Source: Escherichia coli (lineage in GTDB: Bacteria > Pseudomonadota > Gammaproteobacteria > Enterobacterales > Enterobacteriaceae). From it: a stretch of DNA of 64,000 nucleotides. Location: the NCBI RefSeq assembly GCF_036507355.1, contig NZ_AP027877.1. One strand, written 5' to 3'. Below the pieces are notes generated by a model. The model was not told the DNA's origin. It was given only the letters and a program-made list of their open reading frames with translations, and did not search any database. Every line of letters starts with the position of its first letter. Positions within the stretch are counted from its first letter, which is position 1. A program made the position numbers and the translations under genes. Positions 62,038-64,000 of the stretch are shown here, piece after piece.

Positions 62038-62296
62038 CAAAATTGACGTTGCGCGTATCTACAATTGTCTGATTCAGAACAATATCGACACGATAAACCC
62101 CTGGCGTTATTTTTTGTCCTTTTTCGAAACGAGACAAATCGGCCACCATTGAGGGATCATCTTTGAAAAAGGCTGGATCGAACCAGGTTTCAGCTTGTGC
62201 ATTGAACGCTGCCGACACAAACACCACCAGCCCACCAATAAACGATGGCACTCCACCAGAGCTTAACAGGCTGTGTTGTCGGTGAGTTCTATACAT
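62038..62296 (-). pseudogene. elfC: elfC (ycbS) usher, N-terminal fragment (signal peptide + first ~86 codons)
   Basis: MYRTHRQHSLLSSGGVPSFIGGLVVFVSAAFNAQAETWFDPAFFKDDPSMVADLSRFEKGQKITPGVYRVDIVLNQ... parallels FimD N-terminus; runs into IS1 end. Confidence 0.88.
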
Positions 62297-62320
62297 CTCG
62301 CTCTCTTAACTGAAGACGAA

Positions 62321-63022
62321 TTACGATTTACAGTTGAGTTGCGGCGTTTCCGCCCCGTAGTCATTGATGGTTCGATACGTTACGCTGCTATTTTTGGCAC
62401 CCTTTGGCAGAGAGAATTGGTATTTATCAAAGGGGGAAATCATTTGATTTTTAACTACCTTTCCACCTATTTTCAGGTCTGTCAGGGTAATGAAATAAGG
62501 TGTTGGGTTACTGACCGTAACCATGTCAGCTGACGAAGTGCAACGCAGTTTCGCCGGAGCCTCGCCTAAGGGATACGCTAAACCTTTTGGTCGCCAGAAA
62601 AGTTTGATGACGCTTTGTGTGGCAATCTTCAGGGTATTTCCCTCTTCCCGCTTCGTTGTTGAAGGGACTGCCCGTACGCTAGTGAAGAAAAGGGTTTCTC
62701 TGTCTTTCGCCAACGGCGCACCAATGTACATAATGCGTAACAGATTCTCATTAGCCGGATTCAGCACAAATAGCGGTGGTGTAATAATAAAGTCTGCTGA
62801 TTTTTTATTATCTGGGGTCATCACCCATGACTGAATAAGATAAGGAACATCCGGACTGGTGTTACGTACACCCAGTGAAATTTGCTCTTCACCTTCTGAA
62901 TAAACAAGACGTGTTGCTGCAAGTCCAATCCCGCCTTTACCTGCCGCCCATGCGGATGAGCAGCTGAGTAATATTGCCGTTAAACTTACGGTCACAATTC
63001 CCTTTGTTATGCAAGTTTTCAT
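62321..63022 (-). CDS. elfD: Periplasmic fimbrial chaperone ElfD (YcbR)
   Basis: 233-aa ORF, signal peptide, chaperone-type block ATRLVYSEGEEQISLGVRNTSPDVPYLIQSWV. Confidence 0.88.
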   Translation of the reverse strand: MKTCITKGIVTVSLTAILLSCSSAWAAGKGGIGLAATRLVYSEGEEQISLGVRNTSPDVPYLIQSWVMTPDNKKSADFIITPPLFVLNPANENLLRIMYIGAPLAKDRETLFFTSVRAVPSTTKREEGNTLKIATQSVIKLFWRPKGLAYPLGEAPAKLRCTSSADMVTVSNPTPYFITLTDLKIGGKVVKNQMISPFDKYQFSLPKGAKNSSVTYRTINDYGAETPQLNCKS

Positions 63023-63125
63023 AAATAGTCACTCTTAAAAAATATGAATATCCCCTCCAGAACACTGGAGGAGTACAAATTAATAAAACAATTAATGAGT
63101 TCTATTAATAGGTAATGACTCCAAC

Positions 63126-63629
63126 TTATTGATAGTGTTTTATGTTCAGATAATGCCCGATGACTTTGTCATGCAGCTCCACCGATTTTGAGAACGACAG
63201 CGACTTCCGTCCCAGCCGTGCCAGGTGCTGCCTCAGATTCAGGTTATGCCGCTCAATTCGCTGCGTATATCGCTTGCTGATTACGTGCAGCTTTCCCTTC
63301 AGGCGGGATTCATACAGCGGCCAGCCATCCGTCATCCATATCACCACGTCAAAGGGTGACAGCAGGCTCATAAGACGCCCCAGCGTCGCCATCGTGCGTT
63401 CACCGAATACGTGCGCAACAACCGTCTTCCGGAGCCTGTCATACGCGTAAAACAGCCAGCGCTGGCGCGATTTAGCCCCGACATAGCCCCACTGTTCGTC
63501 CATTTCCGCGCAGACGATGACGTCACTGCCCGGCTGTATGCGCGAGGTTACCGACTGCGGCCTGAGTTTTTTAAGTGACGTAAAATCGTGTTGAGGCCAA
63601 CGCCCATAATGCGGGCTGTTGCCCGGCAT
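63126..63629 (-). CDS. insB: IS1 InsB
   Basis: 167-aa ORF; differs from the InsB of the first copy at 14 residues by my reading. Confidence 0.93.
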
Positions 63630-63823
63630 CCAACGCCATTCATGGCCATATCAATGATTTTCTGGTGCGTACCGGGTTGAGAAGCGGTGTAAGTGAACTG
63701 CAGTTGCCATGTTTTACGGCAGTGAGAGCAGAGATAGCGCTGATGTCCGGCGGTGCTTTTGCCGTTACGCACCACCCCGTCAGTAGCTGAACAGGAGGGA
63801 CAGCTGATAGAAACAGAAGCCAC
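63548..63823 (-). CDS. insA: IS1 InsA
   Basis: 91-aa [46 protein letters not shown]; slippery site at 63565-63571. Confidence 0.93.
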
Positions 63824-64000
63824 TGGAGCACCTCAAAAACACCATCATACACTAAATCAGTAAGTTGGCAGCATCACCGAGTAATTCATTGATTCAACAT
63901 CTAATGACTATCCAATAAATAAATATGCGTGATATATAAAGCCCTTTCTTTAGTTTATTTTCAGAAAAAGATACACAAAATTTATATTTGGCATTTTCTT

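Follow-up and report, generated by a model that had tools for sequence, protein, structure and literature searches.

In the 64,000-nucleotide stretch of Escherichia coli DNA analysed here (hereafter the window), elfA, the gene for the major pilin of the ELF fimbria, is missing together with its proximal regulatory DNA, and an intact IS1 element (IS1 copy 2) stands in their place. Comparison with a contig from a sister strain, in which the same IS1 end is still followed by a complete elfA, shows that the insertion of this element was a separate step that preceded the loss of the gene, and the whole structure is probably explained by this insertion followed by an IS1-mediated adjacent deletion of 704 bp. 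The mechanism is well known and the event is an ordinary one, of an already known kind.

Structure of the elfA-less locus

As reference we used the IS-free locus of E. coli XH990 (L001), in which elfA occupies minus-strand positions 5912-6451 and the start of ssuE is at 6807. Positions 62038-63110 of the window align with L001 4845-5917 and positions 63879-64000 with L001 6613-6734; both flanks of IS1 copy 2 belong to this one reference locus, in native order and orientation, with the middle missing. The absent part is exactly L001 5918-6612, a segment of 695 bp comprising 178 of the 179 elfA codons and 161 bp of upstream DNA, and the left flank of the element stops 6 bp into the 3' end of elfA. 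As the first-pass annotation had suspected, elfA is thus missing: these 6 bp are all that remains of it, and the rest of the 64-kb window contains no copy of the 704-bp deleted segment and no ElfA homologue, its sole match to ElfA being a 27%-identity paralogue in ycbV. The descriptive points of that annotation were all confirmed. The 122 bp on the other side of the element, also rightly described in that annotation as AT-rich, were searched against E. coli genomes and proved to be the native ssuE-elfA intergenic region in its native orientation. They match 3584 complete E. coli genomes at 99% identity or more and normally lie 162-283 bp upstream of the elfA start codon (L001), within an intergenic region of 355 bp in full. 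This segment therefore lies on the far side of the elfA site and is not the elfA 3' region, and the gene expected right past the window end by alignment to L001 is not an intact elfA but ssuE, with its ATG about 73 bp beyond position 64000; ssuE retains 194 bp of its own upstream region.

Members of the IS1 family are about 768 bp long, with imperfect terminal inverted repeats (GGTGATGCTGCCAACTTACTGAT / GGTAATGACTCCAACTTATTGAT), insA and insB' frames connected by a -1 frameshift at an A6C motif, and a target duplication of 8-9 bp. IS1 copy 2 has the size and both termini of the family (Table 1) and, with its frameshift motif at element position 304 and its frames open, is apparently functional; its transposase genes are transcribed in the direction of the elf operon. 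It is 100% identical to the IS1 of the RefSeq strains WP5-S17-ESBL-10 and cS100a, where these identical elements carry the label 'IS1-like element IS1A family transposase, programmed frameshift'. The target duplication, by contrast, is lacking at copy 2, as already noticed in the first reading of the sequence: the adjacent 9-mers, CTATTAATA (63102-63110) and GAGTAATTC (63879-63887), are unequal, IRR abutting TATTAATAG and IRL abutting GAGTAATTC.

Between elfD and the element, the 88 bp of native sequence (63023-63110) and the hairpin CCTCCAG-AACA-CTGGAGG (63054-63071) reported previously were both found again. In the mRNA sense the hairpin has a 9-bp stem (63052-63073) with one G.U pair and a UGUU loop, and the 91-nt intergenic RNA has a folding energy of -24.1 kcal/mol (z = -3.46). 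A terminator scan made no intrinsic terminator call on the hairpin, and an Rfam scan of 61000-64000 returned zero family matches, so that it does not correspond to a described RNA element.

Table 1. Coordinates of the features of the decayed elf locus, on the numbering of the window
Feature	Coordinates	Strand	Description
elfC 3' part	59112..61269	-	In-frame 192-bp (64-codon) deletion
IS1 copy 1	61270..62037	-	iso-IS1, 91.0% identical to copy 2, orientation as copy 2
elfC 5' fragment (usher)	62038..62296	-	Reads into 5 bases of IS1 copy 1; product of 87 aa, with NVNFG and a stop at its end
elfD (chaperone)	62321..63022	-	Intact, 233 aa
Native elfA-elfD intergenic spacer	63023..63104	-	82 bp; holds the hairpin
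elfA remnant	63105..63110	-	Last codon TAT and stop TAA (alignment to L001)
Deletion junction	between 63110 and 63111		From alignment to L001
Derived junction sequence			GGAGTCATTACC / TATTAATAGAACTC
IS1 copy 2 (IS1A-type)	63111..63878	-	Exactly 768 bp; ends, frames and frameshift motif present
IRR end of IS1 copy 2 (insB-distal)	63111		GGTAATGACTCC...
insB' frame of IS1 copy 2	63126..63629	-	167-codon ORF, open; via -1 frameshift at TTAAAAAAC
insA ORF of IS1 copy 2	63548..63823	-	91 codons, open
IRL end of IS1 copy 2 (insA-proximal)	63878		...GGCAGCATCACC
ssuE-side junction sequence			CAATGAATTACTC / GGTGATGCTGCC
GAGTAATTC, surviving copy of the original 9-bp target duplication	63879..63887	.	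L001 6613-6621
Retained ssuE-proximal part of the ssuE-elfA intergenic region	63879..64000	.	24.6% G+C

A sister-strain allele and the order of events

The state of the locus before the deletion is documented by a Logan short-read contig of a sister strain (L015, from SRR17480487), which is 100% identical to window 62009-63110 (1102 bp), an interval spanning the junction between elfC and IS1 copy 1, where the end specific to copy 1, GGTAATGCTGCC, is found. At its start, 28 nt identical to the IRR end of copy 2 are followed by GAATTACTC, by the 161 bp of upstream DNA and by an intact elfA of 179 codons, from which the contig continues without interruption across the CTATTAATA site into elfD. 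GAATTACTC is the reverse complement of GAGTAATTC and, in the window, abuts IRL at the other end of the element; combined, the two sequences yield a canonical 9-bp IS1 target duplication. The precursor allele, with IS1 at the same site, is thus seen on its IRR, elfA-side junction only, as L015 begins inside IS1 and does not cover the ssuE side. In the window, the deletion ends at an intact IS terminus whereas the other junction is that of the original insertion, as expected of an adjacent deletion. From the two states it follows that the window goes back to a simple insertion, from which 704 bp beside the insB-distal end were later lost, and copy 2 stands without a duplication because the second copy of GAGTAATTC, present beside IRR in L015, was removed by the deletion. 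The earlier suggestion of an IS1-mediated deletion or rearrangement, as opposed to a simple insertion, is supported by both the L001 mapping and L015, in the form of a local adjacent deletion.

In the first step of the history that we propose, an IS1A-type element landed in the ssuE-elfA intergenic region, which is very AT-rich, at a point 162 bp upstream of the elfA start codon; the 9-bp target GAGTAATTC was duplicated, and the transposase genes of the element pointed toward elfA. In the second, this IS1 was kept in place while the 704 bp beside its IRR (the second duplication copy, the 161 bp upstream of elfA and 534 bp of the gene itself) were lost, so that IRR became joined directly to the last elfA codon. 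The insertion as a separate step and the product of the deletion can both be read from the two alleles, whereas the mechanism of the second step is one that we infer. Most likely the resident IS1 underwent replicative transposition within the molecule, with the AT-rich CTATTAATA at the elfA end as its target; such an adjacent deletion would leave one original junction, one new junction and no flanking duplication, and the DNA in between would be released as a non-replicating circle and lost. The gene for the ELF major pilin, and with it the regulatory DNA next to it, is irreversibly gone.

IS1 is reportedly the element for which adjacent deletions were first described, by Reif and Saedler in 1975 in the gal region, and Turlan and Chandler are said to have found in 1995 that it forms replicative intramolecular deletions. 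In those classical deletions (gal, K-12), as in the window, IS1 remains intact with one original junction, the deletion extends from the other terminus, no duplication flanks the element and the target is AT-rich; we see no mechanistic difference, the window representing what appears to be a natural allele of this kind in a fimbrial locus. More generally, IS copies without a duplication have been attributed to adjacent deletion or to IS-IS recombination, and for 14 of 14 IS-associated deletions in three populations of the long-term evolution experiment an IS was present earlier at the same position (PMC11708052). Those deletions in E. coli B resemble the history proposed here in that an insertion with duplication was followed by an adjacent deletion removing one copy, with the earlier and later states both observable. 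They differ in involving IS150, larger deletions and laboratory populations, in contrast with IS1 and 704 bp in the window, for whose earlier state the source is another natural isolate (L015) and not a time series (PMC11708052).

An identical final structure, inseparable from that of an adjacent deletion by sequence alone, would arise if a second, directly oriented IS1 had inserted at CTATTAATA and RecA-dependent recombination between the 768-bp copies had then excised elfA and one IS1. Such IS-IS recombination is one of the two standard accounts of a duplication-less IS (PMC11708052), and IS1 has arrived repeatedly in this small region, where an IS1 end lies no more than about 540 bp from the anchor in 25 of the 5426 complete E. 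coli genomes, at no fewer than 16 distinct junction positions. We nonetheless consider this route rather unlikely: it calls for one more insertion than has been observed; L015, the sole contig of ancestral type, is uninterrupted at the CTATTAATA site; and the nested deletions of cS100a and WP5-S17-ESBL-10 described below would require still more extra insertions. Copy 2 is also non-chimeric and 100% identical to IS1A-type copies, a point against recombination that is uninformative if the parental copies were identical. An error of assembly, in which a genome with two IS1 copies flanking elfA, or one of L015 type, had its repeat collapsed or mis-joined, seems highly improbable. IS1 repeats do break or collapse assemblies, as in L012 (GCA_949281885.1), where the elfC IS1 is reduced to about 170 bp of joined ends, and no second assembly with the derived junction was found among the complete E. 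coli genomes and JGI metagenomes. However, the element has exactly its 768 bp and precise termini, with unique sequence to its left and right, the CTATTAATA site has no repeat by which an L015-type genome could be falsely joined, two IS1 copies only 1073 bp apart are resolved, which suggests a finished-grade assembly, and equivalent deletions are present in several complete genomes.

The missing duplication would likewise fit a single step in which an unrelated deletion was accompanied by the capture of IS1 at a double-strand break, the 'IS-Del' model proposed for IS5 and IS481 (PMC11708052), but this is scarcely credible here, since in L015 this IS1 end occupies the identical nucleotide position and orientation, and the duplicated 9-mer and an intact elfA come next to it, so that a separate insertion step must have existed. 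Unequal flanks also mark IS-IS inversions, and a long-range inversion or translocation between distant IS1 copies could have put unrelated DNA beside elfD. The right flank, however, is the DNA that normally adjoins this locus, oriented as usual and separated from the left flank by only 695 bp in L001, which rules out such a rearrangement for all practical purposes. From torA to elfG, the window is otherwise collinear with the E. coli chromosome, and it is 99.0-99.4% identical to the complete genomes that match it best.

IS1 at the elf locus in other genomes

Neither junction of the window occurs as a single exact match in the 5426 complete E. coli genomes; the ssuE-side junction has no match in GTDB species-representative genomes and the derived junction has none in JGI metagenome contigs. 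Nine complete E. coli genomes with IS1 at the same boundary include two simple insertions with 8-9-bp duplications (ETEC1716 and PEC389) and seven without duplication, whose losses of elf DNA range from 170 bp to about 5.8 kb. IS1-associated elf deletions were found in strains WP5-S17-ESBL-10, cS100a, 3359, AH04, 2017.11.01CC, E272, TUM1881, and CUPF09. As in the window, these strains have kept ssuE but lost elfA or elf genes downstream of it, in part or in whole, none of the seven aligned has a duplication, and IS1 stands at the ssuE-elfA boundary, except in 3359 (IS1 inside elfA, with flanks at L001 ~5981 and 6327) and AH04 (IS1 in the elfA-elfD spacer, with a 353-bp loss into elfD and an intact elfA), where it lies further into the operon. 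In contrast with this likeness, insertion sites, IS1 isoforms, orientations and end points differ from those of the window, whose junctions are found in none of them, and the elf deletions in these strains therefore represent independent events. Strains cS100a and WP5-S17-ESBL-10 have ElfC, ElfD and IS1 protein accessions in common, as well as the IRL-side junction (~L001 6506), whereas their IRR-side end points lie at L001 6335 and 5938, respectively, which is the nested pattern expected of adjacent deletions.

Such recurrence could be taken to mean that the ssuE-elfA intergenic region is a preferred IS1 landing pad from which nested deletions erase ELF, under selection for the loss or re-wiring of an H-NS-silenced adhesin, in unrelated E. 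coli and Shigella-like lineages. We regard this as very unlikely. A control anchor in the same 5426 genomes, the AT-rich cspH-gfcA intergenic region, has at least as many IS1 copies nearby, with 33 and 19 records at 80% coverage or more in the two orientations and 12 of 12 true two-piece matches among the matches listed for each orientation; nothing beyond the preference of IS1 for AT-rich intergenic DNA is therefore needed. Nor is the idea of selection favoured by the state of elfC, which in the lineage of the window was broken before elfA was lost.

Decay of the elf operon

The order elfD-elfC-elfG-ycbU-ycbV-ycbF and the divergent neighbour ssuE are those of the usual ELF operon (ycbQRST / elfADCG-ycbUVF), a gamma-1 chaperone-usher operon from which the window differs by the absence of the gene for the major subunit and of the nearby regulatory DNA, and by an usher gene with an IS1 and a 64-codon deletion. 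Upstream of elfD only the 6-bp remnant of elfA is found, and instead of an intact elfC of 866 aa there is a gene split by IS1 copy 1 that has also lost those 64 codons. Copy 1 is a simple insertion with an 8-bp duplication, CAAAATTG (61262-61269 and 62038-62045). Recombination between it and copy 2, considered as a further candidate, played no part, the two being only 91% identical and both complete and non-chimeric. The 192-bp deletion in elfC lies at ~60060-60066, between 7-bp direct repeats (GTAGCCA); the relatives closest in the elf region (L032-L037) do not have it. The ElfG allele is rare, and the carriers shown have an IS-free elfA and an elfC without this deletion. Among the exact-protein look-ups, the 87-aa ElfC stub was the sole informative lineage marker: the ElfD allele, very common in public assemblies, and the ElfA allele of L015 are far too common for this use, and a guessed 704-aa C-terminal ElfC product was absent from the records. 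As read from its sequence, the elf locus of the window is a decayed pseudo-operon.

In K-12 the ELF operon is cryptic, H-NS-regulated and SlyA-bound, with a SlyA site proposed 8 bp upstream of elfA (PMC5797941). The 161 bp lost directly upstream of the elfA start include this proposed site as well as a sigma-70-like match, the sole one on the elfA strand and itself no better than chance. The possibility that the new junction creates a hybrid outward promoter, or a terminator, was considered and rejected, the scans showing only a promoter-like site of insA internal to IS1; counts of promoter and terminator sites were not above those of shuffled sequence, and none fell at the new junction. A literature search for a mapped ssuE promoter and Cbl site gave nothing usable.

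On the evidence of the aligned alleles, the usher gene elfC was already interrupted by IS1 in the ancestor shared with the sister strain, before elfA was lost. The deletion would therefore have hit a non-functional and normally H-NS-silenced fimbrial operon and, judging from this order of events, the loss of elfA was probably selectively neutral decay. The locus should accordingly be annotated as a decayed ELF operon, with elfA deleted and elfC both IS1-interrupted and internally deleted, and has little significance beyond that. Its duplication-less IS1 is best read as the product of an adjacent deletion and not as a sign of horizontal transfer or of a large rearrangement. The L015-type and window-type alleles make up a small natural before-and-after pair for IS1 adjacent deletion and could mark the lineage of a rare clone, and the erosion of the elf operon by IS1 is recurrent in E. 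coli.

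Flanks of IS1 copy 2 and extent of the deletion

IS1 copy 2 ends at 63878 in the standard insA-proximal sequence (IRL, ...GGCAGCATCACC) and at 63111 in the insB-distal one (IRR, GGTAATGACTCC...). Its insA and insB' frames are both open on the minus strand, the frameshift motif TTAAAAAAC was found, and two RefSeq genomes carry IS1 copies 100% identical to it, annotated with IS1A-family transposase genes. Since the flanking 9-mers, CTATTAATA and GAGTAATTC, are unlike, copy 2 has no target-site duplication. An 88-bp spacer with a hairpin inside separates it from elfD, and the final 122 bp of the window contain 24.6% G+C. 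All descriptive claims of the first-pass annotation, including the differing 9-mers, the spacer, the hairpin and the AT-rich end, were borne out.

Alignment to the IS-free reference locus of E. coli XH990 (L001), annotated in the order ycbF-ycbV-ycbU-elfG-elfC-elfD-elfA / ssuE-ssuA-ssuD, placed the left junction 6 bp inside the elfA 3' end, which leaves nothing of the gene but its final TAT codon and the TAA stop (63105-63110). The right flank belongs to the ssuE-elfA intergenic region, of which it is the ssuE-proximal portion, and its first base is ordinarily found 162 bp ahead of the elfA start codon; this 122-bp sequence is matched at ≥99% identity, and without exception at the same locus, in 3584 complete E. 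coli genomes. The reference DNA absent from the window (L001 5918-6612) amounts to 695 bp, of which 534 bp belong to elfA and 161 bp lie upstream of it. Neither this segment nor any ElfA homologue occurs elsewhere in the 64-kb window and, as ssuE is expected ~73 bp past the window end, elfA cannot be located there. The suspected absence of elfA is thus confirmed; as for the promoter, also thought to be missing, the loss of the proximal 161 bp stands, the promoter itself being only putative. The event is a local deletion that has IS1 at its scar; it is not a long-range rearrangement.

Coordinates of the features discussed
Feature	Window	L001	Strand or orientation	Remarks
elfC deletion	~60060-60066			in-frame, 192 bp (64 codons), between 7-bp direct repeats GTAGCCA
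IS1 copy 1 (iso-IS1)	61270-62037		same as copy 2	interrupts elfC at ~codon 86
Left flank of copy 2	62038-63110	4845-5917		aligned to XH990
elfD	62321-63022		minus	233 aa, intact, left of copy 2
elfA-elfD intergenic hairpin	63052-63073		minus	9-bp stem, UGUU loop in mRNA sense
IS1 copy 2, complete	63111-63878		minus (transposase frames)	768 bp
Right flank of copy 2	63879-64000	6613-6734		aligned to XH990
elfA		5912-6451	minus	
ssuE		start at 6807		

The elfA-elfD hairpin is conserved: the reference stem is a perfect 9 bp, and in the window a single C-to-U substitution preserves the pairing as G.U. The 91-nt spacer RNA has a folding energy of -24.1 kcal/mol (z = -3.46), the stem is not directly followed by a U-tract, and Rfam returned no match. 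We can only guess at an attenuating or mRNA-stabilising role.

A precursor allele and the mechanism of deletion

An exact-protein look-up of the 87-aa ElfC stub, the product of elfC::IS1 copy 1, yielded a handful of contigs. Two of them, the Logan contigs L015 (SRR17480487) and L016 (SRR31122001), match window 62009-63110 (1102 bp) at 100% identity, across the elfC::IS1 junction and its end GGTAATGCTGCC, which is specific to copy 1, and therefore come from the window's own lineage. L015 begins with 28 nt identical to the copy 2 IRR end, followed by GAATTACTC, 161 bp of upstream DNA and a complete 179-codon elfA that continues uninterrupted into elfD. GAATTACTC is the reverse complement of GAGTAATTC, the right-flank 9-mer in the window; it immediately precedes IRL on the ssuE side in the window and immediately follows IRR on the elfA side in L015. 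The two junctions agree in nucleotide position and IS1 orientation, and together they make up a canonical insertion flanked by a 9-bp duplication. Compared with an L015-type precursor, the window lacks 704 bp (L015 29-732): the 9-bp duplication, the 161 bp ahead of elfA and 534 bp of the gene itself. This loss begins exactly at the copy 2 IRR.

The window structure is thus probably the product of an IS1-mediated adjacent deletion, as the first-pass annotation had proposed. Copy 2 has been kept with one original junction unchanged, its other end now adjoins an AT-rich target close by, and the duplication is gone, a combination that is the signature of such deletions. The L015 precursor, the loss starting at IRR and the missing duplication support this reading over a simple insertion. 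Adjacent deletion was reportedly first described in IS1, by Reif and Saedler in 1975, and Turlan and Chandler are said to have found in 1995 that IS1 makes replicative intramolecular deletions. The main rival, insertion of a second IS1 at CTATTAATA followed by homologous recombination, would give an identical final product, but it needs an extra insertion of which L015 bears no sign, and we regard it as unlikely. A recent analysis ascribes IS copies without duplication to one or the other of these routes, and for each of 14 IS-associated deletions in three long-term evolution experiment populations an IS had occupied that position beforehand (PMC11708052). The very small probability left beside adjacent deletion and recombination is shared by three further readings: a collapsed assembly, capture of IS1 at a break in one step, and a long-range rearrangement.

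In L016 (SRR31122001_810, positions 1-60), an IS1A-type IRL end in opposite orientation abuts elfA at ~codon 16. This IS1, with one junction on the contig, is compatible with two origins: the same intergenic IS1 may have transposed within the molecule and left an inversion, or an IS1 may have inserted here independently.

IS1 near elfA in other E. coli genomes

No complete E. coli genome contains an exact match to either window junction. IS1 was found within the same few hundred bp in 25 of 5426 genomes, at no fewer than 16 distinct junction positions and in both orientations. Nine of these genomes were aligned to the reference and their flanking duplications assessed: seven (cS100a, WP5-S17-ESBL-10, AH04, 2017.11.01CC, E272, TUM1881, and CUPF09) have no duplication and have lost from 170 bp to ~5.8 kb of elf DNA, and ETEC1716 and PEC389 carry simple insertions with the duplications TTTAAATG and TCTTTAATT, respectively. 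In a tenth aligned strain, 3359, the flanks lie at L001 ~5981 and 6327, and elfA is reduced to N- and C-terminal fragments. cS100a (L029) and WP5-S17-ESBL-10 (L028) have protein accessions, IS1 and the IRL/ssuE-side junction (~L001 6506) in common, whereas their IRR/elf-side end points are L001 6335 and 5938; their junctions make them a naturally occurring nested pair of the type that adjacent deletions yield. The ~4.2-kb IS1-associated deletions of 2017.11.01CC (L038) and CUPF09 (L043) end in elfG only 3 bp apart (L001 2353 and 2350), although their IS1 elements point in opposite directions and their junctions on the ssuE side differ (6543 and 6582); a preferred elfG target or a shared earlier IS1 may account for these near-coincident ends.

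As a control, the same IS1 ends were combined with an anchor from the intergenic region between cspH and gfcA, which of all 400-bp stretches wholly within the window is the most AT-rich. IS1-adjacent genomes were at least as many there, which rules out the elfA upstream region as a special hotspot; IS1 simply prefers AT-rich intergenic DNA. In dozens of complete E. coli genomes, the cspH-gfcA region (window ~10560-11140) carries IS1, at a wide variety of distances; the window has none there.

State of the elf operon

From torA to elfG, the window and the E. coli chromosome are collinear, the best complete genomes being 99.3-99.4% identical; window positions 1-41612 (torA to ompA) align with XH990 at 99.03% identity with 12 small gaps. 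Copies 1 and 2, 1073 bp apart and only 91.0% identical, are the only IS1 copies in the window. Copy 1 has intact insA/insB' frames and a duplication of 8 bp, not 9 bp (CAAAATTG). Together with the elfA deletion and copy 1, a 192-bp elfC deletion makes three lesions in the operon; the last, which the closest elf-region relatives (L032-L037) do not have, resembles the outcome of slippage or microhomology. The kind of event that removed elfA is textbook, and only the particular window allele is new to the collections searched.

An IS1A-type element occupies copy 1's exact elfC nucleotide in opposite orientation in L013 (6250-6358, GCA_014528195.1) and L014 (6220-6254, ERR10879153), which belong to a different lineage (flanks 98.1-98.4% identical) and produce the identical ElfC stub of 87 aa; the target site seems to have been hit independently in that lineage. 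In L012 (6257-6428, GCA_949281885.1), the elfC IS1 is reduced to ~170 bp in which its IRR and IRL ends are joined, probably a repeat collapsed in assembly. Among the close relatives, ssuE is called at 148 aa instead of 191 aa in L032 and L036 (1779-2225), where the intergenic alignment has a gap (123 window bases against 119); a 5' lesion or a difference in start-codon call may be responsible.

In K-12, the elf operon is cryptic and part of the H-NS regulon; the 355 bp between ssuE and the elf genes are bound by SlyA, for which a site 8 bp upstream of elfA has been proposed (PMC5797941). This site and the entire proximal 161 bp are deleted in the window, as is the sole sigma-70-like match on the elfA strand, such matches being no commoner than in shuffled sequence; 194 bp upstream of ssuE are retained. 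L015 carries the elfC::IS1 junction and the IS1 end at the intergenic site with elfA still there, so the usher was already broken when elfA was deleted. The loss of elfA most likely represents neutral decay of a dead operon.
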